This document shows, in pieces, positions 7,492 to 49,960 of a stretch of 64,000 bases of DNA. The DNA is from Escherichia phage TH12. Location: sequence record MT446390.1, one strand, 5' to 3'. Position 1 is the stretch's first letter; each line of letters starts with the position of its first letter. A program made the position numbers and the translations under genes. Under the pieces are notes generated by a model. The model saw only the letters and a program-made list of their open reading frames with translations. It was not told the DNA's origin and did not search any database.

Positions 7492-7515
7492 GGGAGACTT
7501 CGGTCTCCCTTTTGT
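7492..7515 (+). terminator. rho-independent terminator, GGGAGAC-UUCG-GUCUCCC hairpin plus U tract
   Basis: Perfect 7 bp GC-rich stem with UUCG tetraloop followed by TTTTGTG. Confidence 0.7.
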
Positions 7516-7546
7516 GCGTTTAGGGCAGAAAAAGTTTAAAAAAGAT

Positions 7547-7575
7547 GTTTACTCTCCTGTAGGATGTGTTACTAT
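7547..7575 (+). promoter_or_regulatory. T4-type early promoter
   Basis: GTTTAC 7547-7552, TACTAT 7570-7575, then GGAGAATAAAATG. Confidence 0.55.
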
Positions 7576-7616
7576 AGACTTGTACCACCTAATCAATAAA
7601 ACAACCGGAGAATAAA

Positions 7617-7985
7617 ATGAAAATCAATCTGAACTCATACATCAAATGTAAAGACCACGATGGTTATAAAGCTATCGAAATTAAAGAATTCCAGTGGATG
7701 TTATACAAAGAGCAATTTGAGTTCGTAGGTTGTATGACCCCTGAAGGTCCTTCTGATGATTTCTCTTGGAAAATTGTGTTAGCAAACTTTTTCACAGGTG
7801 ACACGTACGAATTAAAAACTATTATTACCGGTAAAATTCGTTCAGAAACATATGTTGACGAAGAAACTGGTTACTCTGAAGATGTTACATGGTATCAAAA
7901 TGGACGCATTACAGCAGATAACCTGATCGAAAAAATGAAAGCCAAAGGTGTTTTAAATTTAGACAATTGGATTAAAGTTGCATAA
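7617..7985 (+). CDS. hypothetical protein (122 aa)
   Basis: Promoter-leader-ORF cassette with GGAGAATAAAATG. Confidence 0.6.
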   Translation: MKINLNSYIKCKDHDGYKAIEIKEFQWMLYKEQFEFVGCMTPEGPSDDFSWKIVLANFFTGDTYELKTIITGKIRSETYVDEETGYSEDVTWYQNGRITADNLIEKMKAKGVLNLDNWIKVA

Positions 7986-7989
7986 AACA

Positions 7990-8018
7990 GTTTACTTTGG
8001 TACAGGTTATGTTATTAT
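7990..8018 (+). promoter_or_regulatory. T4-type early promoter
   Basis: GTTTAC 7990-7995, TATTAT 8013-8018; 10 bp dyad TGGTACAGGT/ACCTGTACCA flanks the -10. Confidence 0.55.
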
Positions 8019-8059
8019 AGACCTGTACCAATAAACAACTTAAACATCTGGAGAATAAA

Positions 8060-8432: not shown

Positions 8433-8448
8433 GGGAGCCGAAGCTCCC
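8433..8448 (+). other. intercistronic stem-loop GGGAGC-CGAA-GCTCCC
   Basis: Perfect 6 bp stem with tetraloop between two plus-strand ORFs, no U tract. Confidence 0.5.
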
Positions 8449-12571: not shown

Positions 12572-12759
12572 TGAAAGCTTATTTAGAAACAGTTATTGTA
12601 GCTAAGAAGGATGGTGGAGATGTTTCCACCTCTTGTTCCCAAATTGTATTAGATTTTCCTAATAACGATTCCTATCATATTTTTATGGATAATTTTGATA
12701 AGTACGAAAAAGGCCCTAATTTTGAAGTTTATCGTACTTTGCTTCCGATTGTGGATTAA
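12571..12759 (+). CDS. hypothetical protein (62 aa)
   Basis: ATG overlaps ligase stop (TAATG); the listed ORF start at 12550 is a GTG extension. Confidence 0.45.
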   Translation: MKAYLETVIVAKKDGGDVSTSCSQIVLDFPNNDSYHIFMDNFDKYEKGPNFEVYRTLLPIVD

Positions 12760-12780
12760 GAGCCTTCGGGCTCTTTTTGG
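12760..12780 (+). terminator. rho-independent terminator AGAGCC-UUCG-GGCUCU plus UUUUU
   Basis: Perfect 6 bp stem, UUCG loop, T5 tract. Confidence 0.7.
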
Positions 12781-15254: not shown

Positions 15255-15263
15255 ACCCCTAAA

Positions 15264-15286
15264 GGGAGACGTTGTCTCCCTTTTTT
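15264..15286. terminator. bidirectional terminator hairpin GGGAGA-CGUUG-UCUCCC plus U6
   Basis: GC-rich stem followed by TTTTTT on plus strand; lies between convergent genes. Confidence 0.65.
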
Positions 15287-22691: not shown

Positions 22692-23105
22692 ATGAAGCTG
22701 GAAGATTTACAGGAAGAGTTAGACGCAGACTTAGCTATTGATACGACAAAGTTGCAATATGAGACGGCGAATAATGTTAAGTTATACAGCAAATGGCTAC
22801 GTAAGCACTCATTTATTCGTAAAGAAATGTTGCGTATAGAGACTCAGAAGAAAACTGCTCTAAAAGCAAGATTAGACTACTACTCGGGACGAGGTGACGG
22901 TGATGAATTCAGTATGGACCGATACGAGAAATCTGAAATGAAAACTGTCTTGGCTGCAGATAAAGACGTGCTTAAAATAGAGACTACTTTACAATACTGG
23001 GGAATTTTACTTGAGTTCTGTAGTGGTGCACTTGACGCAGTTAAGTCTCGTAGTTTTGCACTTAAACATATCCAGGATATGCGAGAATTTGAAGCGGGGC
23101 AATAA
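22692..23105 (+). CDS. uvsY: recombination mediator UvsY
   Basis: 137 aa from ATG at 22692, near-identical to T4 UvsY as recalled; the listed ORF start at 22611 is an upstream extension. Confidence 0.93.
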   Translation: MKLEDLQEELDADLAIDTTKLQYETANNVKLYSKWLRKHSFIRKEMLRIETQKKTALKARLDYYSGRGDGDEFSMDRYEKSEMKTVLAADKDVLKIETTLQYWGILLEFCSGALDAVKSRSFALKHIQDMREFEAGQ

Positions 23106-23329
23106 TGCGTTATTCAATTGAAGATGCCTTTAATAATGATGAAGAATTTGAAACAGAAATTAAATTCTTAATGGAAAAGTATCGTCTACGACGTCAGGAT
23201 ATTCGTATCCTGGCAGACCACCCTTGTGGTGAAGACGTCCTTTATATTAAAGGGAAGTTTGCTGGGTATATCGACGAGTATTTTTATACAAAAGATATGG
23301 GTATCGATATGTGCATGCGAGTGGTATAA
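23105..23329 (+). CDS. hypothetical protein (uvsY.-1-like, 74 aa)
   Basis: Start overlaps uvsY stop; syntenic. Confidence 0.6.
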   Translation: MRYSIEDAFNNDEEFETEIKFLMEKYRLRRQDIRILADHPCGEDVLYIKGKFAGYIDEYFYTKDMGIDMCMRVV

Positions 23330-23831: not shown

Positions 23832-23847
23832 TAAGGGCCGAAGCCCT
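23832..23847 (-). other. intercistronic UUCG tetraloop hairpin (GGGC-UUCG-GCCC on minus-strand RNA)
   Basis: AAGGGC-CGAA-GCCCTT on plus strand between uvsW stop and uvsW.1 start. Confidence 0.5.
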
Positions 23848-25361
23848 TATAAATTAATTGTTTTCATTACATAGTTAAATTTCTCATCAGCGTAACGCTG
23901 GATACGATCAATACCGTGTTTTAACAAGTAATTAAGATGAGTATACTTCTTTTTAGTATTTAATGATTTAGGTTTTACACCTGCGTCATCGATGAGATCC
24001 CAAACTGTAGCAACGGCTTTAGAACCATGCTTACGAAGCACACGACCTACTGTTTGAAGTACGATAATTTTTGATTTAACACCATGGGCAAAAATAACAT
24101 GATGAAGATTCTTGACTGAAATACCGGTAGAGAATACTCCATATGATGCGACAATAATAATGCCTTTACCATTTTCTGCCATGACTTTAAGCGCGTTACG
24201 TGTTTCAGTATCAACTTCACCTGATACGTAATAAACTTTTTCGTATCTAAGCTCTTTAATAGCTTCAAATATTTCTTTACCATGTGTAACATGTTTAAAC
24301 ATTACAAAGGCGTTCTCGTCTTTCTTAGCCAATTTGACCGAAAGTTGAGCAATCCACTTTGTACGACGTTTTAGTCCAGTAATAATTTTAACTTCTTCTT
24401 GGTATGTTTTACCTTTTAATTTAACGGTGAATTCGTCCGGATAACGAAGGAAAATACTATTAATCTTAAGCTCAGTTACTTGACCGTCTTCCATTAATTT
24501 AGACGTGCTAACAGGACGGAAGATTTCACCGAACATTCCTACGTACTGCATTACATTGGCTTTTCCGTCTCTTAATGAGCCGGATAAACCGAATTTAAAC
24601 ATGCAATTATTTAATCCTGAGATGATTGAAGAAATACTTTTACCTGTTGCTAAGTGGCATTCATCGTTCATCATCATACCGAACTGAGAGAACCATTCTT
24701 TAGGCTGCTTAACTACCGTTTGCCATGTGCCAACAATAATTGGAGCGTCGTTTTTAGATTTGTCTGCTTTATCAGCACCACCGCCAATTTTCTTAATCAT
24801 CGAATGACTAAACAAGCGATAATCAACAAAATCATTAGCCATCTGGGTTGTCAATGCTGTTGTAGGGACGATAATGAGAATTTTACCTTCATAGTTCTCT
24901 AGATAATATCGAGCTAAAAGTGCTTGGATTAGTGATTTACCTGCTGATGTCGGAAGGTTTAAAATTCGACGACGATTAACTAGTCCTTCATATACTGCAT
25001 CTTTTTGATACCAATGTGGTTCGATTTTGGTGTTGCCCGAATAAATTTCTTGTTTAGAAAGCCATGCGTCAAAATCTTCCCTGGTAAGGTCTTCAGTCTC
25101 AAAGATTTTAGGGTCAATCCATACAGAATAACTCATATTGTTACAGAACTTTTTTATTTGACCTACAAGTCCATATGGTAACAAACGATTGTAATCTAAA
25201 AGTCTAATTCTACCATCCCATTGCCCATAGCGATATTTTGGGTTAAATTTATACCCGTCAGCTTCAAAGCTAAAAAAGTCACGAAGTTCGTAAAACGTAC
25301 TTTCGTCGCATTCAATGCGAACGTGACTAAAATCATGAAAATGTACTTTAATGTCAGTCAT
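23847..25361 (-). CDS. uvsW: UvsW DNA/RNA helicase (SF2)
   Basis: Walker A LPTSAGKS, DECH box; near full-length resemblance to T4 UvsW. Confidence 0.95.
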   Translation of the reverse strand: MTDIKVHFHDFSHVRIECDESTFYELRDFFSFEADGYKFNPKYRYGQWDGRIRLLDYNRLLPYGLVGQIKKFCNNMSYSVWIDPKIFETEDLTREDFDAWLSKQEIYSGNTKIEPHWYQKDAVYEGLVNRRRILNLPTSAGKSLIQALLARYYLENYEGKILIIVPTTALTTQMANDFVDYRLFSHSMIKKIGGGADKADKSKNDAPIIVGTWQTVVKQPKEWFSQFGMMMNDECHLATGKSISSIISGLNNCMFKFGLSGSLRDGKANVMQYVGMFGEIFRPVSTSKLMEDGQVTELKINSIFLRYPDEFTVKLKGKTYQEEVKIITGLKRRTKWIAQLSVKLAKKDENAFVMFKHVTHGKEIFEAIKELRYEKVYYVSGEVDTETRNALKVMAENGKGIIIVASYGVFSTGISVKNLHHVIFAHGVKSKIIVLQTVGRVLRKHGSKAVATVWDLIDDAGVKPKSLNTKKKYTHLNYLLKHGIDRIQRYADEKFNYVMKTINL

Positions 25362-27220: not shown

Positions 27221-27226
27221 TCGTAA

Positions 27227-27883: not shown

Positions 27884-28891
27884 ATGTTTAAGAAATACAG
27901 CAGTCTTGAAAACCACTACAACTCTAAGTTTATTGAAAAACTCTACACTAATGGTTTGACTACTGGTGTTTGGGTAGCACGTGAGAAAATCCATGGGACT
28001 AACTTCTCGTTAATAATTGAAAGTGACAACGTCACATGCGCCAAGCGCACAGGCCCTATTCTTCCAGCAGAAGATTTTTATGGTTATGAAATCGTACTCA
28101 AGAAGTATGATAAAGCTATTAAAGCCGTTCAAGAAGTCATGGACAGTATTTCAACTTCAGTGCCGGTGTCATATCAAGTCTTTGGTGAATTCGCTGGTGG
28201 TGGAATCCAGAAAGGTGTTGACTATGGTGAAAAAGATTTCTATGTATTCGATATCATCATAAACACAGAAAGTGCTGATACTTATTACATGAGTGATTAC
28301 GAAATGCAAGATTTCTGTAATGAATTCGGTTTTAAAATGGCACCAATGCTTGGTCGTGGAACATTTGATTCTCTTATCATGATTCCAAATGACCTTGATT
28401 CCGTCTTAGCCGCTTATAACACTACGGCATCGGAAGACCTTGTCGAAGCAAATAATTGTGTATTTGATGCTAATGTTATTGGTGATAATACTGCAGAAGG
28501 TTATGTTCTGAAGCCTTGTTTCCCTAAATGGCTGCCAAACGGTACTCGTGTAGCGATTAAGTGCAAGAACTCTAAATTCAGTGAAAAGAAAAAGTCTGAT
28601 AAGCCTATTAAAACTCAGGTTCCATTAACCGAAATTGACAAAAACTTGCTTGATGTTCTAGCTTGTTATGTTACATTAAATCGTGTTAACAATGTGATTT
28701 CTAAGATTGGGGCTGTAACGCCAAAAGATTTTGGCAAAGTGATGGGACTAACTGTTCAAGATATTTTGGAAGAAACTTCTCGTGAAGGTATTGTATTAAC
28801 ATCATCTGATAATCCGAATCTTGTTAAGAAAGAATTAGTCCGAATGGTGCAAGATGTTCTGCGTCCTGCATGGATTGAATTAATATCATAA
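27884..28891 (+). CDS. rnlB: RNA ligase 2
   Basis: Nucleotidyltransferase motif KIHGTN; near full-length resemblance to T4 Rnl2. Confidence 0.93.
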
Positions 28892-28922: not shown

Positions 28923-30206
28923 TTATTCATCTATAATAATTTTAGGCAATTTAACACCGAGTAAAACAGACAAGTCTGAACGTCCTGCCATTTTATCCAT
29001 GTCCCCGCCATCAATTATTCTCGCTTCTTTTTCGTCTTTTGCTACTGTGTAAGGATTTGCTGATAAAGCGTATCTAACTAATAAACCGATAGACGGTTGC
29101 AAGCTTTCCGGGTCAACTACAACTTTAAATGCACCAACATGTTCCGGGTCATCTAAGTCGAGACCTTCTGTATACGGAGCATAGAAAATTGATCCAACAA
29201 TTTCTTTTTCACCGATATTTTCTACTACGCCAACGATCACATAATCTAATGGACTGTTAGTATCGCAGTAAAGAGGTAATCCATTTGCCAAGAATCCATA
29301 AGCATTTTGTGAAAGATACTTATCATCTTCTGGTTTATGTTTTAACCAACCTGAAGCAGCAAGAATAGCAGCTGCACGAGCTGAAGCTACGCAAAACGTT
29401 GCAGTATAAGTTGACTCTTTTTGAATGTGTGATACCATTTCACACACCATTCGATATAACGAACGACCTGCTTCTGGAGCGGAAGCATAGCTCAAGTCAA
29501 TAAATCCAGTGTCAGTAATTCCAGTAACTTTATAACGTTTCGATACAGTAATTAAAGACTGAAGAATATCTTTATTAATTTCATCAGCCATTTCAGTAGC
29601 AAGCAAATCTTCTAAGAAGTTAGGGGCATCAAATCCATTCGCTTCTAAATCTTGCGCTAATTCAACCGTGAGGCCGGTTTTAAGTTTACGAGATTTGACT
29701 GAAGTTTGCCATTTATTAATCTGGAATCTTGCATCAGAAATTTCGCTACCGGAGCTTTCAAATTTGCTTGTCACCGCTGCATCTGAAAATAACCGTACCT
29801 TTAAATGAACGACCGCAATCTGAAGAGCTAATTCTAGATCACTTTCTTGAATATCTGCAAATGGTGTATCTTCTAGCACTTTATAGACGATATTATTATA
29901 TTTGAAAAAATCGCCTTTATTTAGTGTGACTTTTGATTCTTCTGTGAGCTCGGTAATTTTTTCTCGGTCTACATATCCAGCTTCACCTGCATAAGTAGCA
30001 CCAGTTTTAAACGTTAATTCGTTGTCTGGGTTAAGATATTTGATACCATAAAAAGCAGCAACAGGTTGATTAGTTCTTTGTGTTGCTACAATGTCAGAAT
30101 ATATTAATTTAGTCGTAGCGCGAGTCAAAGCAACGAGATTTGGGCGACCAATTGAGTTGCTAGTAGACGTTGTAGATTCACGCAATAATTTTTGGATTTT
30201 ACTCAT
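28923..30206 (-). CDS. 24: head vertex protein
   Basis: 427 aa, near-identical to T4 gp24 as recalled. Confidence 0.95.
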   Translation of the reverse strand: MSKIQKLLRESTTSTSNSIGRPNLVALTRATTKLIYSDIVATQRTNQPVAAFYGIKYLNPDNELTFKTGATYAGEAGYVDREKITELTEESKVTLNKGDFFKYNNIVYKVLEDTPFADIQESDLELALQIAVVHLKVRLFSDAAVTSKFESSGSEISDARFQINKWQTSVKSRKLKTGLTVELAQDLEANGFDAPNFLEDLLATEMADEINKDILQSLITVSKRYKVTGITDTGFIDLSYASAPEAGRSLYRMVCEMVSHIQKESTYTATFCVASARAAAILAASGWLKHKPEDDKYLSQNAYGFLANGLPLYCDTNSPLDYVIVGVVENIGEKEIVGSIFYAPYTEGLDLDDPEHVGAFKVVVDPESLQPSIGLLVRYALSANPYTVAKDEKEARIIDGGDMDKMAGRSDLSVLLGVKLPKIIIDE

Positions 30207-30576: not shown

Positions 30577-30604
30577 AACCAAAAATGGGAGACCGAAGTC
30601 TCCC
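30571..30604 (-). terminator. terminator for the gene 23 transcript (GGGAGAC-UUCG-GUCUCCC plus U-rich tract on minus strand)
   Basis: Plus strand AAATAAAACCAAAAAT then GGGAGACCGAAGTCTCCC; same hairpin as at 7492 and 49943. Confidence 0.7.
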
Positions 30605-30628
30605 AAAATAAGATTTAATCAATTAAGA

Positions 30629-33027: not shown

Positions 33028-33057
33028 TTTAGTGTCCTGTGGTTTAGATTACATTAT

Positions 33058-35943: not shown

Positions 35944-35971
35944 TGTATTCTCCGAATGGGAATTATAGTTA

Positions 35972-35979
35972 TATTTATA
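35972..35979 (-). promoter_or_regulatory. late promoter for gene 20
   Basis: TATTTATA on plus strand about 29 nt upstream of gene 20 start. Confidence 0.55.
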
Positions 35980-36027
35980 TGGACTTCTCCGTCATCACGG
36001 GAAGCTGGGGATTTCTCCCCAACCAGA

Positions 36028-36519: not shown

Positions 36520-36591
36520 ATTAGCCTCTGTAGTAATATGGGCTTAGGATTAACCAGATGCCCATAGAATTAATTTTTAAACGATATAGTA

Positions 36592-36599
36592 TATTTATA
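36592..36599 (-). promoter_or_regulatory. late promoter for gene 19
   Basis: TATTTATA on plus strand in the 18-19 intergenic region, just downstream (on the minus strand) of the hairpin at 36601-36618. Confidence 0.55.
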
Positions 36600-36600
36600 T

Positions 36601-36618
36601 GGGCTACCGAAATAGCCC
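36601..36618 (-). other. stem-loop after gene 18 (GGGCTA-loop-TAGCCC)
   Basis: Perfect 6 bp inverted repeat directly after gene 18 stop. Confidence 0.5.
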
Positions 36619-36631
36619 ATCAGGCATCTTA

Positions 36632-38614
36632 TTAACCACCTACAGCACCAATCAGTTCGTCGAAATCGGCACCAGTTGCTGTTGCTACAAAGTTCAACGT
36701 AATATAATTTATCGAGCGGGCAGGTTGTAAGTAGAAAGTAGCTACAAATTCATTACGGTCGATAACTGCTGGGGTGTTATTGGTAGTATCACAAACAACT
36801 TTAAAGTTATATACACCACCGAGAGCTTTAATACCCTGTAGATATTGAGAAGTCTCTGTACGGAAAGAAGAACGGGTAAATGCGTTGTTCAATTCAAACA
36901 GGCGATATTTAGATGCTGAACCAATGTTCGTTTTAACCATATTGAACAAACGACGAACGTTAATACGGTCAAATGGTGAAGGAACGGAAGTGGCAGTTTT
37001 ATCACCATACAGAACATATCCATCACCACCGGTACCAGTAACAGGGTTAATAGCTTCCTGATACAAACGATCACGTTGTGGTTGACGAGTTTCAATTGCA
37101 AGCTTAATAACGTTAAGAATTTGTCCACGGTTATAACCGGCCGGAGACATCCAAGGCTGAGAAATATTGTCTGTGCGAGCACAAAGACCGGCAATATCAG
37201 CAGCTAACGGAACCCAACGATTCACATCGTTATATTTGTCGTATTGATATTTATAGTTACCGTCAATAGCAGCATAAGTAGAACTTACATTAAAGTTATT
37301 ATCAGTGTAAGATCCTGATGCAGTACGCCAATCAACCAGATTATCAACTGCACGATTAACAGGAATACCGACTATAGTTGCACGTGGTGGTGAGCAAAGA
37401 ACCAAGCAATCTTGTCGAGAATCACCAATTGCTACAACATGTTTCTGAACTGTAGAAGCAACTTCTAAAGATTCACCTGCACAAGAACCGGCAATAAACA
37501 ACTGCGCATTAACAGATTCGCGGTCAGCAAACAAATCCCAAGCTTCCATTAAATCACCAGCGTCAACCGTTTCATTAGATGATAAGCCACCACTCAGTTT
37601 GATTACACCAGAGAAACCTTTTGGCCAACCTTGTGCAGTAGCGAAAATATAATTGCTTGCGCCTTTAGCAAAGAAATCATCAATAAAGATATTACTACCA
37701 TAAATATCGCGTTCACCGCGTTTAGTAGAAAGAACTACACTCTGGACTACAGCATCGTTACGACGAACGATAATCGCATATTGGTCATCAGTTTGTGGGC
37801 CATACCCAAAGATTGCTTTAGCAGTAGATGCGCGAGTACCACCATCAGGATAAATTTTTAACTGGGCTGAAGCACCTTTGTCATAGTCTGCTTTAGATAC
37901 GATTTCAATTTCGAGCCGGTCGCCAAGTTCACCAGGATAAAGAGCAACTACGCCTGGGACACCATATTTTTTAATAGATTCTTGGAAAGTTAGAGAAGTA
38001 ATAGCTTCTTCTGAAGTTTCAACTTCAGTCAACAGAATACCTGAATCGGTTACGATAGAACCAATTGTAATAACGCCAGAGAGTCCAGAAGAAGAACTGG
38101 CAACTTCGGCGGTCCAGTTAGAACCTAATGCCGGATATTCATTAATTTCTTTTGCACGAGCAATAATTTTACCGGTTGGGATATAAATGTTAAGGATTTT
38201 ACCATCGACATCAACTGAAGTGACATAACCATCTGCTTCAACAGTTTCGGACAAATACTTAACGATAATTTTATCACCAACAGCATAGTTACTACCTGCA
38301 GCTGAGATTGTGAATTCGATATTGCCTGCTACAGGAGATGAGTTCTTAGCAGTATCACGATCAACTGCGCGTACAACACGAAGGTCATTACCGTATTGAA
38401 GGAAGTTCATAGCAGACATGAAATAATCTGCTGTATCCGTATTAGGAGTACCAAACATATCAACCAATGCAACTTCATCAGTGATTTGTTTAATCTGGAA
38501 TGCAGGGCCCCATTGGAATTTTCCAGCCAGAGCAGCAGTACCAGTGGAGTTATTAACTACAGTACTCTGTACGGTAGTTTCTTTGAGCTCAACGCCCGGA
38601 GAGAGAAGTGCCAT
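36632..38614 (-). CDS. 18: tail sheath protein
   Basis: 660 aa, near-identical to T4 gp18 as recalled. Confidence 0.97.
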   Translation of the reverse strand: MALLSPGVELKETTVQSTVVNNSTGTAALAGKFQWGPAFQIKQITDEVALVDMFGTPNTDTADYFMSAMNFLQYGNDLRVVRAVDRDTAKNSSPVAGNIEFTISAAGSNYAVGDKIIVKYLSETVEADGYVTSVDVDGKILNIYIPTGKIIARAKEINEYPALGSNWTAEVASSSSGLSGVITIGSIVTDSGILLTEVETSEEAITSLTFQESIKKYGVPGVVALYPGELGDRLEIEIVSKADYDKGASAQLKIYPDGGTRASTAKAIFGYGPQTDDQYAIIVRRNDAVVQSVVLSTKRGERDIYGSNIFIDDFFAKGASNYIFATAQGWPKGFSGVIKLSGGLSSNETVDAGDLMEAWDLFADRESVNAQLFIAGSCAGESLEVASTVQKHVVAIGDSRQDCLVLCSPPRATIVGIPVNRAVDNLVDWRTASGSYTDNNFNVSSTYAAIDGNYKYQYDKYNDVNRWVPLAADIAGLCARTDNISQPWMSPAGYNRGQILNVIKLAIETRQPQRDRLYQEAINPVTGTGGDGYVLYGDKTATSVPSPFDRINVRRLFNMVKTNIGSASKYRLFELNNAFTRSSFRTETSQYLQGIKALGGVYNFKVVCDTTNNTPAVIDRNEFVATFYLQPARSINYITLNFVATATGADFDELIGAVGG

Positions 38615-38642
38615 TTTAATTCCTCTTAATTTGCTTTATTTT

Positions 38643-40967
<2,325 letters not shown>

Positions 40968-41789
40968 TTATTGTTTTCTAGGACCAGGAGGGGTTGGTGG
41001 AGTCGGGATTGGAATATCATGAGTATAAGTTTGTTCAACTTCGCCATTCCAATCTTGTGCTTCAACGTCTCTCGGTTTAATTTCTGTATCAACTGATTCA
41101 AAAACGCTGGCGGCTGTTTGAAGGTCTCGTTCATTAGCATGAAAATCAAGATAAGTCGTTTTAATAAGGCCTTCAGCTGCGCCTACCGGAGGATACATCC
41201 ATCCATTTACTTCAAATGTTAATGACCACTCTAAACGTCGACGGGATAAATTATCACCGTCTATTTGTTCATCCATTGCTGCTGCCATCCATACGACTTT
41301 AATATCCCTTTCAAATGGAATATCCTGCCCATATTGCTCAATCATAGTCGTATTAAAATGCGGCTGAAAATATGGAATAATTTGCTCAACGATTTGGAAC
41401 ATATCATCTTCATAACGAGTAAAGATGCTCAGTTCAAAAATCATTTTAATTGGTGATGGGTTGTATTGGTCTACAATATCCTTAGTCGATTTACTCAAAA
41501 GAGAGTTATTCAATATATTCGTTTTAAACGTTGGGTTATAAACGAAATCTACCATTTGGAGATTTATACGTGGTAGAATAGTTTCGACTTTAGCCACATC
41601 TTCTTGTGAGTTTATAGAGGTCCATTTATTAAGTTTCATCATAAAGTGCTCTTTAGATGCATACGTAATAGGAACTCTAATTAATTTATTGCCTGTAGAC
41701 AATTGACGGTTAACTTGGATATTTGAAAACAAATCGCCCATCATTGTGATATATCGCCTGAACGACGAGTTGTAAAAATAGCCAAACAT
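40968..41789 (-). CDS. 15: tail sheath stabilizer and completion protein
   Basis: Resemblance to T4 gp15 from second Met (MFGYFYNSSFRRY...). Confidence 0.9.
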   Translation of the reverse strand: MFGYFYNSSFRRYITMMGDLFSNIQVNRQLSTGNKLIRVPITYASKEHFMMKLNKWTSINSQEDVAKVETILPRINLQMVDFVYNPTFKTNILNNSLLSKSTKDIVDQYNPSPIKMIFELSIFTRYEDDMFQIVEQIIPYFQPHFNTTMIEQYGQDIPFERDIKVVWMAAAMDEQIDGDNLSRRRLEWSLTFEVNGWMYPPVGAAEGLIKTTYLDFHANERDLQTAASVFESVDTEIKPRDVEAQDWNGEVEQTYTHDIPIPTPPTPPGPRKQ

Positions 41790-41841
41790 CATTTCTCCTA
41801 ACCGGCCTTTCGACCGGTGTTTGCTTTATCTTATTTATTTA

Positions 41842-42606
41842 TTAATTCATAAACCCATCGTCAAATGGTGAATTTTGTCTACCGCGGTTGTTAACTACTA
41901 CATATGGTTCAACGTATTCACTTGCCTCTGAATTGATTTGCTCAACTTCAGAATATTCATCGATATTAATGTCATGGATACCGTCAAGATTTCTAACAGG
42001 ATTAAGTTCCAAGTCACTAAATTCAGGTATATTGATACCTTCATTTTTCTGAAGCACCGGATTGATTTCTTCGCCAGAGTAAATAAACTTGCCTGCAGTA
42101 ATTTTACGAATCGCATTTTTACCTACTTGATAGAACGGGTCATATGGTTCAACCCAGTTAATCTCAAACAAACTGTTGTCCATTGGGAAGTATATTAAAT
42201 CACCTTCCTTAGGCTCCTGATTGTTGACCTGGTGTTTGAAAAGACCTGGGTTAATAGATAATGTAACTTCGTCTTGAACTTGCATTCCGAAGTTGCTGAA
42301 GAACGATTTCGCTCCTTCATAACCTTCAAAAGAGTTCAGATATGCAGCAAATTTCCATGCTTTAGTAAATTTATTTTTAAGGTCCTCACCAAAGATAAGG
42401 TCCACGGCAACATATTCACGTGGAACATAAAAACATTCAATACCGCGCATCTGTATGCTTTCTGCCACTAGAACATCGGCTAGGGTTTGACTATTTTCGT
42501 ATTTGTTGAAGTTCACGTATTTGTTTAAAATCTCGGTCTCATTTGTCTGAGAATACCCACCACGATTTTCTAGCTTGGCGAAAAGATTTTTATCATAAGT
42601 TGCCAT
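41842..42606 (-). CDS. 14: neck protein
   Basis: 254 aa, synteny with T4 gp14. Confidence 0.88.
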
Positions 42607-42607
42607 A

Positions 42608-43534
42608 TTAACCTACCAAAATACCTGCAGGAGGGTCTAGTAAATATAACTCTTCTCGTAAAGCTTCTTTCTCTAAACGAGCTTCTTCAATTAATCGAAC
42701 ACCGTCGACAGTGACACCACCCGGTAACATCATACCTTGATGTTTAGCAAGAATTTGTCCGTTAAGCTCTTTAGCTAATGCAGTTGCATAATCTTTAACC
42801 CAGCGGTTGTTATATGCGCCTTGTTTAGTTGCAGGATCTTCACCAACTCGACGTCCTACCAAATTATGGTCTGGATTATCATAACGTTCAGAAATAGACC
42901 ATGAATCACGAGGACCGACCTGACCGTACCCTACTGTATTTCCTACCATCTTATGGGTCTCGATATAAGAGCGAACATACGATTCAACGATAATGACATC
43001 TTTCTGTCTAAAGTTACCCATTACTTTTAATTGCTCGTTTGCAGAGTTAAACCAAAAATCCGGAAGAGGAGCAATCATATCTTGAAGCATACCCATATAA
43101 GATACTAATTGAGAATAATATCCGAGGTCAGCGCCAAAAGCGTTCGGGCCGTAGAATTTACCACAATTACTGCCCATACCACCTGAAACACCAGCCATTC
43201 CTAAAAGGAAATCGGTGAACCATGGATAAGTTGCGTTACCATCCATTGAAGTAATAGAGCCAACGTTTGTTCTTATAATTCTTGTTACAGCAAATACATT
43301 AGAACCACGCATATCAAATACGCCATGACGGTATTTTTCTTCGTCATCAACAAAAAATACATGGAAACCTTTATTCAACCCGTCAAAATGGTATTCGCCG
43401 TAAAGTTCTAACGCTCGTGAAATACAATCATAAATTTGGTCTGTAGTTAATTCAACATTTACAATAGGAGCGCCTAAACGACGTAATATTACATCCTTTA
43501 ATTCTTTAGGGTTTTGTGCATTATAACCTGACAT
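42608..43534 (-). CDS. 13: neck protein
   Basis: 308 aa, synteny with T4 gp13. Confidence 0.88.
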
Positions 43535-43546
43535 ATAAATCCTTTA

Positions 43547-43560
43547 GGGCCCGAAGGCCC
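43547..43560 (-). other. intercistronic UUCG tetraloop hairpin between wac and gene 13
   Basis: GGGCC-CGAA-GGCCC on plus strand (UUCG loop on minus-strand RNA). Confidence 0.5.
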
Positions 43561-43566
43561 TTTTCA

Positions 43567-45009
43567 TTAAGCTGTAGGAAGTTCAACCCAAGCACCATCT
43601 TTACGAACATAGAATTTACCGTCTGAAGGAGCATCTTCGATATATCCAGCCTCTTTAAGGGCCTGAATTTCTGCTTCTGCTGCAGCAAGGTCTGTTTCTA
43701 AAGTGGTAACACGCGTAGTTAAATCCGTAATTGTCGTGTCGTGGTTTTTAACTGTTGGCAATATACCACGTTCTTCTATGGTTTGACCGTTTGGGGTGGT
43801 GCCGCTTATAAGTTTATTTAAACTAGTTACTTGTCCTTTAATACCAGACGAATTAGTTCCCAATTCAGTTTGAACGTTTTGAATGTTATTGCCTAGGTCA
43901 GTAACACCAGTTTCAAGAATACGAGTCCTATATAAAAGTGAACCGGCCGGTTCAGGTTGTCCACCGTTTGAATCAACGCCAACCACCTGATTAAGCCATG
44001 CTACGTTAAAACGTAAACCACTAGAAGAATCAACACCTAAAACTGTGTTAATACCTGAAATGGAATCGGTATTTAATTTGATCTTACCCTGAAGAGTAGT
44101 TGGTAAATCTGGAGAGCCTATAGTAGTTTCTAACGTTGTCAAACGTGGTTTAATACCGCCAGGCGAGTTAATGTCTGAATTTATTGTTGATATAGAAAGA
44201 CGATTGGCCTCGACTTGAGTTTTAATAGCGGTTGAATTAGGATATCCAACAAAATCTTTTAATGCCGCAATATCTCTAGTTTGGATAGAAATGGATGAAT
44301 CAATACTGGATAAACGAGTGTAAACCGGTACTGTTAACGATGGTCTAGGACCTATTTCTTGACGGAGGTTTTCAACTTCGGTTGTCAGAGCCCCAACATC
44401 AGAATCGGCAAATTTATTTTCTAACTCGGTTAAACGAACGCCTTGGTCAACCAACACTGAGCTGTTAGTAATAATACGTCGTTTCATCCCGGTGCTTTCA
44501 TTACCTTCGGTCGGGACACCATTAATATCTTGTCCAGTATATTGCCCTAATTCGGTTTTAATCCAAAGAAGGTCGTTACGCACCGTACGATACACTGAAT
44601 CTGTTTCTGGATTAACTACTCCGATATTAGCAATAGTATCATCTAGTTTTTCTTCAGTGTTTAAAATATCAACACCGTGTGAATTTACAGTGTGTTTTAA
44701 TACTTCAATATCATCAGTGTTATGTCCAATTTGTGCTAAAGCATCTACGTCACCAGAAACATCCAAGATACTTTTAATTGTGTCAATATCAGCATTAGCG
44801 GTATCTAAAGATTCTGCTATAGTCTTAACGTTATCGTTAATTGTTTCTACATTTCGTTGAACTTCTGTTATTGGACGGTTCATTACTCCTTCAGAACCGT
44901 ATAACGTATCAGCGCCAGTTATTTCTTCTGAATTTTTAATCCAGTTTAAACGTTTTTGACCCTCATCAGGAGGGCCATCAACGTATGGTAGACTTTTTAA
45001 TTCGATCAT
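43567..45009 (-). CDS. wac: fibritin (neck whiskers) with C-terminal foldon
   Basis: Coiled-coil repeats and C-terminal GYIEDAPSDGKFYVRKDGAWVELPTA foldon-like motif. Confidence 0.92.
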   Translation of the reverse strand: MIELKSLPYVDGPPDEGQKRLNWIKNSEEITGADTLYGSEGVMNRPITEVQRNVETINDNVKTIAESLDTANADIDTIKSILDVSGDVDALAQIGHNTDDIEVLKHTVNSHGVDILNTEEKLDDTIANIGVVNPETDSVYRTVRNDLLWIKTELGQYTGQDINGVPTEGNESTGMKRRIITNSSVLVDQGVRLTELENKFADSDVGALTTEVENLRQEIGPRPSLTVPVYTRLSSIDSSISIQTRDIAALKDFVGYPNSTAIKTQVEANRLSISTINSDINSPGGIKPRLTTLETTIGSPDLPTTLQGKIKLNTDSISGINTVLGVDSSSGLRFNVAWLNQVVGVDSNGGQPEPAGSLLYRTRILETGVTDLGNNIQNVQTELGTNSSGIKGQVTSLNKLISGTTPNGQTIEERGILPTVKNHDTTITDLTTRVTTLETDLAAAEAEIQALKEAGYIEDAPSDGKFYVRKDGAWVELPTA

Positions 45010-45018
45010 TTTTTACCC

Positions 45019-46569
45019 TTAGTAATGGACTTTAATAATATAATTTAAAGATATATTCCATGGACGAGTCTCATATCCGATAAGTCCTTCACGGTTAAGA
45101 GTGCCCAATGCGTCGCGGTGACCACCTAATTCGAAGCCGTCATTTGTGAAATATGATGCATTATCCCAATCAGAGTATTTTCTAGTACCCAAATAACCTT
45201 GATATACGGATGCTCCGAACGGCGCCTCATGCCGATTATATTCGCCCCATCCACCAGCGTGTTTATGATATGACATTTGCTGTGCTTGGACACCACCAAC
45301 ATGCATGCCGTCACATCCTACACCTAATCTATCCTTTCCATAGCCGTCTTGACCGCGATTATTTAAAATATGGCTGCCTGTACCGGCTCCTCTAACAAAA
45401 AGACCGCGCATGTCTGGAATTCCAGGATTATTCCAATCACCGCCAAATCTTGTTCCAACCACATTTCGATAGTCCGGAAATTGGTCTCCAGAAATGGTCC
45501 CGCCATGACATAAAACCCAACCTGGAGGAGCGCTATCACCTGCGAACATTTGAATTGTTCCAACAGGAACACGTTCAGATGCATATCGCTCTGTTGCAAC
45601 CGGCTGGTCACCGTTTTTCCACATTCCGCCACGTGACCAAATTCCATTTGCTGTGAGATGGTCTAAATTTAAAGAACCATTAATAGTTTGCCCACCGCGT
45701 GTATTAATTACATCTGCGTTCCATGCTAATGCTCCAGAGCTATCGCCTTCGGGTGCAACACCGGCCTGTGTCGTTAATTTTACGACTCCACGCATAGAAC
45801 CGGTAGCTCCTCTACCATTTAGCGTTTCACCCGTTACAGCAACATCTCCTAAATTACTATTAATTTCCGCTTGTGTTCCTAGACGTATAACACCTTTATA
45901 TTCTTGTGTTGCAACAGAATTCATAAAGGTATACGGGGAAATTGCATATCCTTCGCGAAGAGTTCCTTGACGTGTTTGAGCCACCGTAGCTAAACGCACA
46001 ACACCGGTAATAGATTCTGAAGCCGGGTCGTTATTAGGAGCTATTTGAGAAATTAATTTTATTGCTAATTGCTGAGTTTTAAGCGGTGTCATTGCTGTGG
46101 TATCATCAGACCCGGCAAGTGCAGCGGTTTGAGTTGCAATTTTAATAACACCATTAGTTGTTTCGGTGGAATAACGAGTAGAGAACGTGTTATCAATAGT
46201 TTGGTTTAATTTAAGCGGAGTAATAGAAACAGTGTCTAAAGTGCCGGCAATGGCTTCCTCTTGTGTTGCATATTTAGTTACACCGTATTGTGTTTCTGAC
46301 GCGTTCGGATACTGAAGTCTTGCATTTAATGTGGCGGGTGTAACAGCTTTAGTACTATTAAATCCATCAAGAACTTCTTGTTCTGTCGCTAATTGAATTA
46401 CACCTTTTTCTGCTTCACTTGCGTCCGGAACACCTTTAACACCATACGCGCTAATTGAGGCTAAGGCTGCCTGGACATTGGTTATTGAACTATCAAAATT
46501 TGACCCTACCGGGTCAAATTCAACATATACAGATTCGTTCGAAACGTGTTGATATGTATTGTTACTCAT
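45019..46569 (-). CDS. 12: short tail fiber protein
   Basis: 516 aa, synteny with T4 gp12. Confidence 0.88.
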
Positions 46570-47225
46570 GCGGTTCTCACAAAATAATAAAAGGTTGTAG
46601 GTGAAATATGGTTGTCAAGAGTAATGGTTTGCGCACCTAGTAAATTCCAAGTGCCGTACCCGGACTTAGCCTGAGACACTATTTCTTGAGAAACCGTGAT
46701 ACCATAAGAGGAATACGTTGGGAGTACGTGTCTTTGGTTATCTAAATATGTTATTTGTAATTTAGTCCCAACAGTAGGGTCATCTTTATACTCTGCAATA
46801 GCCAATTGGTCGGAAATCGCATTCCGGAGAGTAGTACGTAATTGTACAACAAATTCGTCGGCTGTCATACCTACAGTAGCATTAACAGGAAGCCCGTAAA
46901 CTTTTACAATAACAGGGCTTCCATCGGGCAAACTAGGGTCAGTTACACTTCCACTAAAGGACCAATAATCTACCTGTGAAGTTCCTTCAGGAGATACACC
47001 TGAGGTGTTAATTGTAACTGTTCCTACATCTGCTCTAGCAATATTATGAACATCGTTTATTGCAGATTCTACGTTATCATCATAGAATCCTTTTGCCAAT
47101 TGAGAAATAGTTACAGAACCTACGCCTTGGTTGTTTAAAATATCAATTTGAGTAGGATTTTTTCTAAATCCTAAAAAATCTGCTTCGCGGGATATTACTC
47201 CCGCTTTAGTACTAAGTATGGTCAT
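46566..47225 (-). CDS. 11: baseplate wedge subunit / short tail fiber attachment
   Basis: 219 aa from ATG overlapping gene 10 stop; resemblance to T4 gp11. Confidence 0.88.
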
Positions 47226-49039
47226 TATGCAATCCTTACCCAACGGTATACGGTAATTGACGGTTGAATATTATTTACAGCTTGAGGCGGTACGTGTGTA
47301 CTATTCGTTGTGGCGTGGCCTTCACGGTATTTGGTGTATATAGGACCTTCTGCATCAGGGTCGTATTGACAACCACCAATAATAATTGTACCGTTCTCAT
47401 CGGAAATAAGAACTTTCTCGTCAGTTTGAGTAGGAGGTAAATCAGAATTAGTTAGTGTGTTAGACGTTGTTCCGACTGTTCCACCGGCGGTATGTGTAGG
47501 ATTCCCGCTAGAATCAAGGTCGTTATTATTTAATGCAAAATTAGGATCGCTAATATCGTCGTTCCATCCAACTAATACTTTTCCTTGTCCCCATAATTTC
47601 CAAGAGCCAAATCCTAAATATGTGGCTGGGTTATTAGGGTTCACTGCATTTTCGTAAATAGTACCGACAGGGTAAATGGTGTTAAAAATATTTGCAATAG
47701 ACGAGAATTCCCTGCTATATGCCGGAACAGATTCTACATTAGGCCATCCGATATTATTGAAATCGGTCAAAGCCACATCGCCGGTCACATTTACGGTTGC
47801 ACCTTGTGCGACATACCTTTCATCAGTTGTATCTAAAATGTCATCGATACTTAATAAAGTGCCTAAATCGTTATTAAACCATGTAATATCAATAATGTCT
47901 TGGTCTTCAAACTTACGGTCAAAGACTAAAGCACGTGCAATAGTTGCATCGTTATCATCATATTCAATAGAATAATCGGTATTAGATGTAACCCAAGTCC
48001 CACCTAAAGCTGAACACTCGGTAGAAGTTTCTGCATCAGCACCTTCACATCTGAACATAGGTAAACCAACAGTACCAGCTAATTCTTGAAGAATACCGTT
48101 AAAACGAACTTCTAAAGAATTGGTATTGACCGGTTCTGAAGGATTAACTCCAAATGCCGAAAAAGGAATAGATTTCAAAGTTGACAAATCAGCGACATAT
48201 ACACTTCCTTCTAAGGAAGGACGGGTTGTTAATTTCGAATCTAAAATACGTATTTGGCGGCGAGAATAAGAACTGCGTAATTGTGTAATCCCATCCAAAA
48301 AGGTTTCAATTTGTACGGTGTCGCCAATATTACATGGTTGTCTTAAACGGATGTTTTTACCATCTAATGCAACGATTTCTCCAGGATTAGCTCCTGGAGA
48401 ACCAAAGTCACTATTGTCACTGAACGCATCACCGTAGTATAATTCGTTACCACGATGTTTTACACGGATATTATTCACATTATAAGAAACAGACCCAAAT
48501 ACATCAAGAAAATCAGTTTGGCCTTGAACTTCGACTAAAAATTCTTTACGAGCTACACTACTAATATCAGAACTAGTAATTTTGTCTATTTGTTTATTTT
48601 TAACGTATTCCCAGCGCCCAGGAGAACAGTAAACTAATTCTAAGTCTGAAAACTGCACATTGATTTCTACTGGGCTAGAAGAACCTTTAATAGTATCACC
48701 ACTGGCAGCAATTAATGTTACAGGGTTAATATTCCATGTGGCGAATACATCACGGGCTCTAATTACTTTATTATAATCTTCCACTGTTCCTTTAGGTAAA
48801 TTTATAGAAACACGCCCTGTTGAAGTATCAATTGCGTATGATTTACCCCATTCAGCAGCTAAATTAAGTCCATCTGAAGAATGGTATGTTTTCCAGGCAC
48901 CAGCGGAATATGGAACTTCGCCATCGCCTAATTCATAATACAACTCATCAAAGTTTTCATTAATTTTTGCACCACCACGACGAAGGTAATCGCCTTGTCC
49001 GTCATCAACGACGTTCCCAATTTTAATATTTTGTTTCAT
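47225..49039 (-). CDS. 10: baseplate wedge subunit and tail pin
   Basis: 604 aa, synteny with T4 gp10. Confidence 0.9.
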
Positions 49040-49902
49040 TATTGAGCGACCCTAATTTTCTGAGTTGAAATAACTTTAGCTGCCACTCGAAGACCATTTA
49101 TATGTGAAGAAACTGTCATAGTGGCAAAATTGTTAATTATCGAAAAACTAATATTCGCAATTTCATCTTCTTCGTTATCATTACCAACGCGCATCACTGC
49201 GTATTCGGTTGAAATAACTCTTGAATTAATTGTATCTATTAGAATATTTATTTCACATGATTTAATTTTTCTGCCGTTGGCAGATTGGCATGTAACCAAA
49301 AGTTTAGCAGCATTATATTCAGTTTTATAAAATAGAGGAATATTGACATAGTCTGAAATAATATTCCATGTCCCGTCTACAGGAATTTCGGTATGACTAA
49401 ACATACTTTCTGTAGAATAATCCCATATTGAACCGCCTGTACCAGAAGAAATACAACGAAGAGTAACTTTAGTATAAGGTGTAGTTATAACTAAATTACC
49501 TGCAACACCTTTAATAGAATCTAATGCTTGGATACTTAATGGGTTGTTTACCGAAATTGACCCGTTTGAATTTATAAATTCCACGGAATCACCGAGTTCA
49601 CCTCTAGCAACAGTAACAATAACACCACCGGTGGAAGCATCTATGTCGTGTCTACTTCCTACTGGAACAGGGGTGAAATAATCAGTAGGACCTCCTTTTT
49701 GGTAGTATCCAGTAGCATGGATTATTTGTCCATTTGGTCCTGTCCCATTAGCAGTTGCCATTTTTCGTTGGTCACCAAACGCATTGTAAATAGCATTTAT
49801 ATCATTGTTTATTTTAACACCGCCGTCAAAAAGGATATCGCCTGTAGAAGCGTTACCAATTTCGCCAACGTCAATCAATTGTTTTGGAGTTTGAATATAC
49901 AT
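49039..49902 (-). CDS. 9: baseplate wedge long tail fiber connector
   Basis: 287 aa, synteny with T4 gp9. Confidence 0.9.
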   Translation of the reverse strand: MYIQTPKQLIDVGEIGNASTGDILFDGGVKINNDINAIYNAFGDQRKMATANGTGPNGQIIHATGYYQKGGPTDYFTPVPVGSRHDIDASTGGVIVTVARGELGDSVEFINSNGSISVNNPLSIQALDSIKGVAGNLVITTPYTKVTLRCISSGTGGSIWDYSTESMFSHTEIPVDGTWNIISDYVNIPLFYKTEYNAAKLLVTCQSANGRKIKSCEINILIDTINSRVISTEYAVMRVGNDNEEDEIANISFSIINNFATMTVSSHINGLRVAAKVISTQKIRVAQ

Positions 49903-49927
49903 ATGGCTAATCCTTAATAGTTTATAC

Positions 49928-49935
49928 TATTTATA
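49928..49935 (-). promoter_or_regulatory. late promoter for gene 9
   Basis: TATTTATA on plus strand 26 nt upstream of gene 9 start. Confidence 0.55.
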
Positions 49936-49942
49936 CACGAAA

Positions 49943-49960
49943 GGGAGACCGAAGTCTCCC
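49943..49960 (-). terminator. GGGAGAC-UUCG-GUCUCCC hairpin after gene 8
   Basis: Exact copy of the hairpin at 30587-30604, between gene 8 stop and the gene 9 late promoter. Confidence 0.6.

Follow-up and report, generated by a model that had tools for sequence, protein, structure and literature searches.

We find that a single 18-nt hairpin, GGGAGACTTCGGTCTCCC, stands in three exact copies in an RB69-like Mosigvirus genome of the T4 family; most probably (roughly 0.85) each copy acts on its own as an intrinsic (Rho-independent) terminator, or as a hairpin that protects the 3' end, and the three transcription units served are unrelated. The copies are located at 7492-7509 (+), 30587-30604 (-) and 49943-49960 (-) of the window, that is, the whole stretch of 64,000 nucleotides analysed, and are referred to as sites 1, 2 and 3. 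Their sequence, fold, position, orientation, comparative conservation and generic recurrence are all seen directly. A role in termination or RNA stability is well supported by the position after stop codons, the sense-strand UUCG, the U-rich tails, the conserved hairpins with compensatory changes and the annotation of a relative.

Three exact copies and their surroundings

All three copies are intergenic, lie 3-24 nt past the stop codons of genes 30.9, 23 and 8, and carry UUCG on the sense strand. An earlier note on this DNA had given the coordinates, the UUCG on the transcribed strand and the gene contexts (a small early ORF, here gene 30.9; gene 23; and genes 8/9, by relatives' annotation), all of which hold. 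Even with up to 3 mismatches allowed, the window contains no match to the 18-mer beyond the three copies, and 0 of 100 dinucleotide shuffles of the window hold even one. The flanks have a stop codon, an AT-rich spacer and a T tract in common and are otherwise unrelated; the shared sequence is the 18-20 nt hairpin only. Searching the whole window on both strands with Rfam covariance models returned 0 matches at gathering score.

Adding one flanking pair (A-U at site 1, U-A at site 2, A-U at site 3) gives each copy an 8-bp stem with 5 G-C pairs, and at all three sites the UUCG loop is closed by a C-G pair (...GAC-UUCG-GUC...). The 46-nt stretches containing the copies fold at -14.1 to -19.2 kcal/mol (z -3.8 to -4.6), a stability reached by 0 of 200 shuffles. 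The heptamer GGGAGAC is found four times in the window, always inside hairpins: the three exact copies and the hairpin at 15261, since this variant (15264 in the earlier note) shares the 7-bp stem GGGAGAC/GTCTCCC. A census of the motif and its U tracts, proposed in the earlier note, shows UUCG to be enriched: TTCG/CGAA loops cap 7 of the 14 perfect GC-rich tetraloop hairpins of the window (chance ~1%) and, over the complete genome of phiEC1, a close relative, UUCG caps 20 of 32 GC-rich tetraloop hairpins. U-rich tails are present at the three exact copies.

Table 1. Positions of the hairpins and promoter elements in the window
Feature	Positions	Strand	Sequence	Context
Site 1 hairpin	7491..7510	+	A-GGGAGAC-UUCG-GUCUCCC-U, tail UUUGUGCGUUU	gene 30.9 stop 5 nt before
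T4-type early promoter (read from sequence)	7547..7575	+	GTTTAC-17 nt-TACTAT	37 nt 3' of site 1 hairpin
8433 hairpin	8433..8448	+	GGGAGC-CGAA-GCUCCC (sense)	between gene 30.7 and next ORF; no U tract; SD GAGG next
12758 hairpin	12758..12775	+	AAGAGCC-UUCG-GGCUCUU + UUUGG	between DNA ligase and Alt-type ADP-ribosyltransferase genes; terminator-like
15261 hairpin	15261..15283	+	AAAGGGAGAC-GUU-GUCUCCCUUU + UUUCUU	same GGGAGAC/GTCTCCC stem; GTT triloop; 10-bp stem overall
23832 hairpin	23832..23849	-	UAAGGGC-UUCG-GCCCUUA	between 504-aa DNA helicase gene (uvsW in relatives' annotation) and 77-aa ORF
Site 2 hairpin	30586..30605	-	U-GGGAGAC-UUCG-GUCUCCC-A, tail UUUUUGGUUUUAUUU	gene 23 stop 24 nt before
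43546 hairpin	43546..43561	-	AGGGCC-UUCG-GGCCCU	between 480-aa and 308-aa ORFs; no U tract; SD AAGGA next
T4 late promoter box, gene 9 (read from sequence)	49928..49935	-	TATAAATA	6 nt past site 3 hairpin
Site 3 hairpin	49942..49961	-	A-GGGAGAC-UUCG-GUCUCCC-U, U tract UUCGUGU, short	gene 8 stop 3 nt before

At site 1 the upstream ORF (59 aa) is 96% identical to T4 gp30.9, and the hairpin, whose 46-nt stretch folds at -19.2 kcal/mol (z -4.4), is a predicted intrinsic terminator of the 31-rIII-30.9 early unit. After the early promoter come GGAG and gene 30.8, whose ATG is at 7617, and T4 has GTTTAC...TAGTATTAT at the corresponding place. Hairpin and promoter together resemble a terminator/promoter cassette of the PeSL (promoter-early stem-loop) type. 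Before gene 30.9, the stretch 7190-7310 includes ~100 nt of non-coding sequence with 98-100% identity to T4; it has no significant fold (z -0.2).

Site 2 is a canonical predicted intrinsic terminator. It follows the gene for the major capsid protein (522 aa, annotated in relatives), its U tract UUUUUGGUUUU has 6 T in 8 nt, and it is the top-ranked terminator-like site in a scan of 30450-50400. No promoter is seen in the ~90 nt read past the hairpin, and the next gene on the sense strand lies ~380 nt further.

Site 3, between genes 8 and 9, is a putative terminator or attenuator, or may stabilise the 3' end. The same late promoter box stands behind the gene 8 hairpin in most orthologous loci, including T4, and T4-type phages retain the order stop-hairpin-U tract-TATAAATA-SD-ATG at gene 8/9, with varying stems.

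At sites 1 and 3, 4 T are found in the 8 nt past the 8-bp stem (5 of 8 when counted from the 7-bp stem), and both fail the U-tract rule of the terminator scan, whereas the orthologous T4 sites have full U tracts. Given these short tracts and the failed rule, sites 1 and 3 may be leaky attenuators or stability elements only.

We infer that termination or RNA stabilisation occurs at the three sites in the following manner. Once the host RNA polymerase has passed the stop codon, the RNA would form the 8-bp stem with its C(UUCG)G cap, and the hairpin together with the U-rich stretch behind it would release some or all of the polymerases. A hairpin remaining at the 3' end of the message would shield it from 3'-to-5' exonucleases. 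Just downstream of sites 1 (early) and 3 (late), a promoter would restart transcription, so that neighbouring genes would be insulated from one another. Selection would act on the position and shape of the hairpin rather than on its stem sequence. A literature search for RNA 3'-end mapping in T4 or RB69 found none.

Variant hairpins with and without a U tract

The five variants listed in the earlier note all exist, with two starts off by one (12759 instead of 12760, and 23833 instead of 23832). Its terminator or RNA-stability reading stands for the three exact copies and for the hairpins at 15261 and 12758; it does not extend to 43546, 23832 and 8433, which have no U tract.

The hairpin at 15261 is the top terminator-like hit of its scan and is conserved in phiEC1. 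Genes converge on it: on the + strand a 121-aa ORF, which comes after the Alt-type ADP-ribosyltransferase gene, and on the - strand a baseplate gene of 320 aa; by their order, the surrounding genes would correspond to T4 alt and gene 54. We propose it as a putative terminator, mainly for the + strand, and as a fourth use of the GGGAGAC stem. The hairpin at 12758..12775 is identical in phiEC1.

Having no U tract and abutting the SD of the next gene, the hairpins at 43546, 23832 and 8433 are not canonical terminators; they are intercistronic hairpins for which a terminator function is improbable. At 43546 the fold has a z of only -1.6 and a T tract is found on the antisense strand only; the flanking ORFs would be T4 wac and gene 13 by length and order, and the hairpin is probably a barrier to 3' exonucleases rather than a terminator. 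The first three bases of the 23832 stem are the UAA stop codon of the helicase gene, and GGAG comes next; this hairpin is identical in phiEC1. At 8433 the loop is flipped: the sense strand reads CGAA, and phiEC1 has its reverse complement UUCG at the same site.

Stem turnover in relatives and the origin of the identity

Close relatives keep the copies, as the earlier note had expected: site 1 is identical in phiEC1, site 3 has an identical counterpart in RB69, where the genes on either side are annotated as 8 and 9, and the hairpin after gene 23 carries a (computational) rho-independent terminator annotation in the record of a close relative, OL960576.1. Across T4-type phages, a strong GC-rich hairpin with a U tract follows gene 23 in almost every locus examined and gene 8 in most; the loops are mostly UUCG and the stems are many and different. 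T4 itself has other UUCG or CAUG hairpins at the three positions: AGGGAACC after gene 23, AAGGGAGCC with a CAUG loop between genes 8/9, and AGGACTCC after 30.9, the latter a UUCG hairpin with a U tract at the same place as site 1. In a covariation alignment, double compensatory changes are found in 8 of 8 stem pairs. Paired cells amount to 96%, compared to 70% in shuffles and at most 63% with the partner slid, the 96% being partly by construction because the best hairpin of every locus served as the anchor of the alignment.

The 18-mer recurs in separately sequenced relatives (phiEC1, RB69 and IMG/VR isolates), and Mosigvirus genomes hold 4-5 exact copies each plus one triloop copy of the same stem. 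In phiEC1, a further exact copy follows an ORF that we take, from its N-terminus, to be T4 gp32, and a further one follows a 375-aa ORF that may be tail-fibre gene 35.

The same 18-mer is also found in at least 120 unrelated viral contigs and at no fewer than 120 places in bacterial genomes of many phyla; among the matches listed, 107 of 122 viral and 103 of 126 bacterial ones have at least 5 T in the next 8 nt, that is, a T tract in ~85% of the occurrences listed. The earlier note had taken exact reuse as a mark of function. This does not hold up, as the orthologous sites of T4 and other relatives use different stems and the 18-mer occurs in unrelated phages and bacteria. A sample of viral contigs gave 76 complementary GGGNNNC-UUCG-GNNNCCC-UU hairpins; one of them has the AGA core, and GAG is the commonest core. 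On this count the GGGAGAC stem was rejected as a universal optimum, and a restricted repertoire alone may not explain the identity. In Monte Carlo simulations with independent-position stem preferences for phiEC1, 4 identical stems among 20 have p ~0.01 and 3 among 20 have p ~0.1; the recurrence of GGGAGAC mildly exceeds position-wise stem preferences and is borderline.

The rarity of the core in that sample and the 4-5 exact copies plus a triloop copy per Mosigvirus genome (p ~0.01 in the independent-position model) would fit identity by copying, in which the terminator stem was spread by short-patch gene conversion or PeSL-type cassette exchange and the copies are recombination points. PeSL-mediated exchange is documented in T4-type phages (PMC2839356, PMC4122927), and at gene 8/9 the GGGAGCC of relatives against the GGGAGAC of the RB69-like lineage would need two simultaneous changes with no wobble intermediate. 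We nonetheless consider copying unlikely. Similarity to T4 does collapse at the end of 30.9 beside hairpin 7492 and again at hairpin 8433, but these breaks fall on gene ends as much as on the hairpins, and at gene ends the survival of recombinants is likeliest in any case; the big mosaic breakpoint of the window (42596-42607) is a gene junction with no hairpin; it forms the left edge of a block of 80-86% identity, at ORFs that would be genes 13 and 14. The flanks of the copies share only the stop codon, AT-rich spacer and T tract, and those of site 3 resemble the orthologous site 3 of other phages, not site 1. The earlier note's proposal of a recombination substrate is plausible and published for T4-type phages, but comparison with phiEC1 reveals none of the mosaic junctions it looked to at sites 1-3: identity shows no breakpoint there, the alignment being unbroken at sites 1 and 2 and site 3 lying inside the long 80-86% block. 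No partial match is found at the site 3 region among the best 30 BLAST records, all of which cover it end to end. Furthermore, published PeSL crossovers were mapped to promoter, AT-rich and SD parts, not to stems (PMC2839356).

A stronger form, in which RB69-like terminator hairpins evolve in concert and very short conversion tracts or cassette exchange would have carried GGGAGAC-UUCG-GUCUCCC time and again to other terminator positions, appears doubtful to us. The positions concerned would be those that follow genes 8, 23 and 30.9 and the ORFs read as 32 and 35, together with the convergent junction at 15261. If true, terminators would make up a homogenising repeat family, modules would be exchanged preferentially by crossover at them, and the PeSL idea would be extended from variable early regions to the conserved structural-gene block.

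That GGGAGAC appears in the window only inside hairpins, and that GGAG lies in the 5' arm and in 8 of 24 UUCG hairpins of phiEC1, could also reflect a sequence-specific site, GGGAGAC/GUCUCCC being bound or cut by a factor and the hairpin being secondary. The candidates would be the T4 RegB endoribonuclease, which cleaves GGAG, or a DNA-level recombination or packaging protein. Such a site is very improbable, as orthologous loci keep the hairpin and not the sequence, and the 18-mer is used by unrelated phages and by bacteria of many phyla that lack T4 factors. RegB targeting was rejected on this sequence turnover and on the RegB resistance of GGAG within stable T4 stem-loops such as terminators (PMC1702504). 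Finally, a repeat of only 18 nt might be a short GC-rich palindrome that recurs by chance, or might have arisen as an artefact of assembly or annotation; the empty shuffles, the copies in independent relatives and the intergenic, sense-oriented placement refute this, leaving it next to no probability.

For separate terminators or 3'-end hairpins, the preferred reading, the three-fold identity would most likely reflect a narrow stem repertoire of the lineage, with a purine-rich 5' arm (A)nGGG(A)(G)(A/C)C; short-patch copying between sites may have helped.

Known systems and meaning for T4-type phages

C(UUCG)G is the most stable small RNA loop known, and the C(UUCG)G hairpins of bacteriophage T4 mRNA were reportedly described by Tuerk et al. 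in 1988. UUCG hairpins were discovered in T4 mRNA, with exceptional thermodynamic stability (PMC4371310), and UUCG is common in the intergenic stem-loops of T4, terminators among them (PMC1702504). The hairpins described here share with them the UUCG, the C-G closing pair, the GC-rich stem and the intercistronic position in T4-type messages. Only the stem sequence and multiplicity differ: T4 has three stems where the RB69-like genome has one stem at three sites. Terminators of E. coli typically have a G-rich 5' arm and a C-rich 3' arm. By definition, an intrinsic terminator is a GC-rich hairpin followed by a U-rich tract (PMC2988021). Our sites agree in having both past a stop codon, and the same 18-mer with a T tract is found in many bacterial phyla; in contrast, the U tracts of sites 1 and 3 are short and interrupted, and three of the listed variants have none.

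REP/BIME elements are short GC-rich intergenic palindromes, some of them mRNA 3' stabilisers, with a longer consensus and a dedicated transposase-like protein. The likeness lies in short GC-rich palindromes repeated between genes; here, unlike REP/BIME, the minimal stem-loop is the sole shared sequence, and orthologous sites of relatives hold other stems.

PeSL cassettes of T4-type phages were described by Arbiol et al. 2010 (PMC2839356) and Comeau et al. 2014 (PMC4122927). Their stem-loops are reported as effective terminators, with a reporter assay described (PMC2839356); the repeated cassettes are proposed as recombination points (PMC2839356, PMC4122927), and junctions of circular products from crossovers between neighbouring PeSLs were sequenced (PMC2839356). 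Site 1 follows the published layout (PMC4122927) of stop, G...C stem-loop, AT-rich spacer, GTTTAC/TACTAT early promoter, SD and ATG. Unlike in PeSLs, the repeat is the 18-20 nt hairpin only, with no whole cassette conserved between copies; sites 2 and 3 lie in the conserved structural-gene block, and the promoter at site 3 is late, not early. Comparison with phiEC1 and the best 30 site 3 records revealed no rearrangement bounded by copies of the 18-mer.

The finding is real but already understood, both UUCG terminators and cassette recombination having been published. In T4-type phages, UUCG-capped terminators have belonged to textbook knowledge since 1988 and recombination at such elements is known from PeSLs, so our understanding is unchanged. 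The value of the finding is for annotation: the hairpins mark ends of transcription units in an RB69-like genome, and true terminators can be told apart from the three intercistronic hairpins that have no U tract. Copying between terminator sites, if real, would say something modest on the evolution of phage regulatory punctuation.

Three copies of one hairpin and their gene context

RB69-like Mosigvirus genomes, for example Shf125875, RB69, FP43 and phiEC1, match the window at 97-99% identity, and gene order implies that the window runs in reverse of the standard T4 map. A window search for the 18-mer GGGAGACTTCGGTCTCCC returned exactly three copies (sites 1-3 in the table below), and the earlier claim of an exact repeat at these coordinates is borne out. 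No further copy with up to three mismatches is found in the whole window, and the 18-mer occurs in 0 of 100 dinucleotide-preserving shuffles of it. The repetition is real and well past chance level.

Counting one flanking pair, each copy forms an 8-bp stem capped by UUCG, and the 46-nt stretches around the three copies fold at -14 to -19 kcal/mol (z-scores -3.8 to -4.6). The heptamer GGGAGAC has four occurrences in the window, confined to these copies and to the hairpin at 15261-15283.

At all three sites the sense strand carries UUCG. The gene 23 copy ranks first in its region in a consensus terminator scan, and the record of a close relative (OL960576.1) gives it a rho-independent terminator annotation on each strand. 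Intrinsic terminators are defined by a hairpin and U-rich sequence (PMC2988021). UUCG is frequent in the intergenic stem-loops of T4, terminators among them, and GGAG motifs within these stem-loops resist RegB (PMC1702504). No Rfam family matched in a scan of the window. UUCG terminator hairpins are an already well-known feature of T4-type phages, and the earlier note's reading of the hairpins as functional elements (terminators, RNA stability or processing determinants) is essentially right according to position, comparative and annotation evidence.

Hairpins and promoters located in the window
Feature	Position	Strand	Sequence	Context
Site 1	7492-7509	+	GGGAGACTTCGGTCTCCC	3' of 59-aa ORF with 96% identity to T4 gp30.9
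T4-type early promoter	7547-7575	+	GTTTAC-17-TACTAT	after site 1, then start of gene 30.8
Variant hairpin	8433-8448	+		3' of gene 30.7, intercistronic
Variant hairpin	12758			
Variant hairpin, fourth use of the stem	15261-15283		AAAGGGAGAC-GTT-GTCTCCCTTT	
UUCG hairpin	23195-23212	+	CAGGATA-TTCG-TATCCTG	within 74-aa ORF 23105..23329
Variant hairpin	23832			between uvsW-type helicase gene and 77-aa ORF
Terminator-like hairpin	27225-27242	+	AAGGGGC-CTAA-GCCCCTT	3' of 376-aa ORF
Strongest hairpin of the window	28890-28923		AACGAAAAAGGGACC-TTAC-GGTCCCTTTTTCGTT	exactly between converging ORF 27884..28891 (+) and gene 24 (28923..30206, -)
Site 2	30587-30604	-	GGGAGACTTCGGTCTCCC	3' of major capsid gene 23
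Variant hairpin	43546			between ORFs read as wac and gene 13
Late promoter box	49935-49928	-	TATAAATA	6 nt past site 3 hairpin, then gene 9
Site 3	49943-49960	-	GGGAGACTTCGGTCTCCC	between genes 8 and 9; identical sequence in RB69 between annotated genes 8 and 9
Three tandem early-promoter cassettes	62673-63470	+	GTTTAC ... TACTAT / TATAGT / TACTAT	ahead of small ORFs

Hairpin position and shape across T4-type phages

We compared viral-contig loci encoding gp23 (n=75) and gp8 (n=54). Nearly all T4-type phages examined have a strong GC-rich hairpin with a U tract 3' of gene 23. Its loop is UUCG in most (GCAA, GAAA and UACG are also seen), and its stems include GGGACC, GGGAGCC, GGGAACC, GGAGCC and GGGAGAGC besides GGGAGAC. 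Most gene 8/9 loci are laid out as stop, hairpin, U tract, TATAAATA, Shine-Dalgarno sequence (SD) and ATG, with varying stems. When 52 distinct hairpins are aligned on their loops, both-sided changes occur at 8/8 stem pairs. Pairing holds in 96% of cells, whereas shuffles reach 70% and sliding the partner gives no more than 63%. The 96% figure is partly by construction, since each locus enters the alignment with its best hairpin. The informative point is that a strong hairpin lies at the same place nearly everywhere, against only around 25 comparable hairpins across the whole 64-kb window.

T4 has other stems at all three positions: AGGGAACC-UUCG after gene 23, AAGGGAGCC-CAUG at the gene 8/9 site and, behind 30.9, AGGACTCC-UUCG with an early promoter. 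The hairpins are thus conserved in position and shape but not in sequence.

Every other variant in the earlier note was found, two of them with coordinates shifted by one. Those at 15261 and 12758 are terminator-like. The hairpins at 43546, 23832 and 8433, placed by length, gene order and relatives' annotation, are without a U tract and adjoin the SD of the next gene; they are better read as putative intercistronic hairpins (barriers to 3' exonucleases, or structures tied to translation). The 8433 hairpin has a CGAA loop on the sense strand versus UUCG on the same stem at the orthologous phiEC1 site, which looks like a loop inversion inside a perfect palindrome, an event of the template-switch type. 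T4 has GGGGC-UUCA-GCCCC at the matching place.

The 15-bp perfect stem at 28890-28923 is absent from the earlier list. It is a likely two-way terminator because it lies between converging genes and its loop on the gene 24 strand is GUAA (a GNRA tetraloop). The hairpin at 27225-27242 has the same stem and a UUCG loop in phiEC1: the loop changed and the stem was kept. The hairpin at 23195-23212, whose stem is AT-richer, is conserved in phiEC1.

Mosaic structure around the hairpins

Mosaic junctions at the hairpins, another earlier proposal, are not seen against phiEC1. Window positions 1-42607 are 97.7% identical to this phage, and the window alignment has no identity break at sites 1 and 2. Block 42596-63093 reaches from the ORF read as gene 13 to the baseplate genes around 63 kb and contains site 3 and genes 7-10. 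It shows only 80-86% identity to phiEC1, whereas RB69 and Shf125875 match a 3-kb sample of the block (48450-51450) at 99%. We read the block as a large mosaic exchange; on the left it ends (42596-42607) at the junction of ORFs read as genes 13 and 14, without a hairpin.

Identity to T4 is 88-100% across most of genes 31, rIII and 30.9, collapses at the end of 30.9 beside hairpin 7492, is around 50% throughout 30.8, and climbs back to around 90% within 30.7 before a second collapse at hairpin 8433. Both collapses are also at gene boundaries. This pattern fits the published promoter-early stem-loop (PeSL) model, which has crossovers fall at terminator/promoter cassettes (PMC2839356, PMC4122927), and is equally explained by the best survival of recombinants with junctions between genes.

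A patch of around 270 nt at 7201-7470 (+), made of around 100 nt of non-coding sequence and gene 30.9, matches T4 for the most part at 88-100% identity (98-100% over 7201-7350), against around 50-60% in the sequence directly flanking it. The contrast suggests that Tequatrovirus and Mosigvirus lineages recently exchanged sequence here. No significant RNA fold is seen in the non-coding stretch (z -0.2). At 62673-63470, each promoter cassette carries an inverted repeat across the -10 box, and ORFs 62737 and 63088 are paralogues that share the start MKTYKEFI. The segment 63093-63456 has no alignment to phiEC1, which suggests modular variation of the PeSL type.

Recurrence of the stem within and outside the lineage

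The complete phiEC1 genome (170 kb) contains 24 UUCG hairpins with a stem of at least 5 bp, and UUCG is the loop in 20 of its 32 perfect GC-rich tetraloop hairpins. The 5' arms are all purine-rich, (A)nGGG(A)(G)(A/C)C. The exact 18-mer has four copies: two follow genes 23 and 30.9, a third follows an ORF whose N-terminus resembles that of T4 gp32 by eye, and the fourth lies between 375-aa and 221-aa ORFs, presumably tail-fibre genes 35 and 36, with a late promoter next. The gene 8/9 site has GGGAGCC in place of GGGAGAC.

We rejected GGGAGAC as a universal optimum, since the AGA core appears just once among 76 complementary GGGNNNC-UUCG-GNNNCCC-UU hairpins (sample of viral contigs, among the matches listed). 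Under an independent-position model with phiEC1 stem preferences, four identical stems among 20 have p ~0.01 and three p ~0.1, so the multiplicity is mildly above the prediction of simple preference. The two tests point different ways. Possible sources of the multiplicity are a higher-order preference for GGGAG(A/C)C and occasional short-patch copying. The flanks show no signs of copying: all they have in common is a stop codon, a spacer rich in AT and a T tract, and those of site 3 resemble site 3 of other phages.

Several Gallionellaceae, Sideroxydans and Nitrosomonadales contigs (L380, L397, L436, L439, L443, L454) have two copies of the 18-mer within a few kb, and this lineage may also reuse the terminator hairpin heavily.

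Among the matches listed, more than 120 unrelated viral contigs contain the exact 18-mer, and in 107 of 122 occurrences the 8 nt that follow on the UUCG strand include at least five T. The bacterial matches listed, spread over many phyla, also exceed 120 genomic positions, and 103 of 126 have this T tract. The 18-mer is probably an intrinsic terminator that is commonly reinvented.
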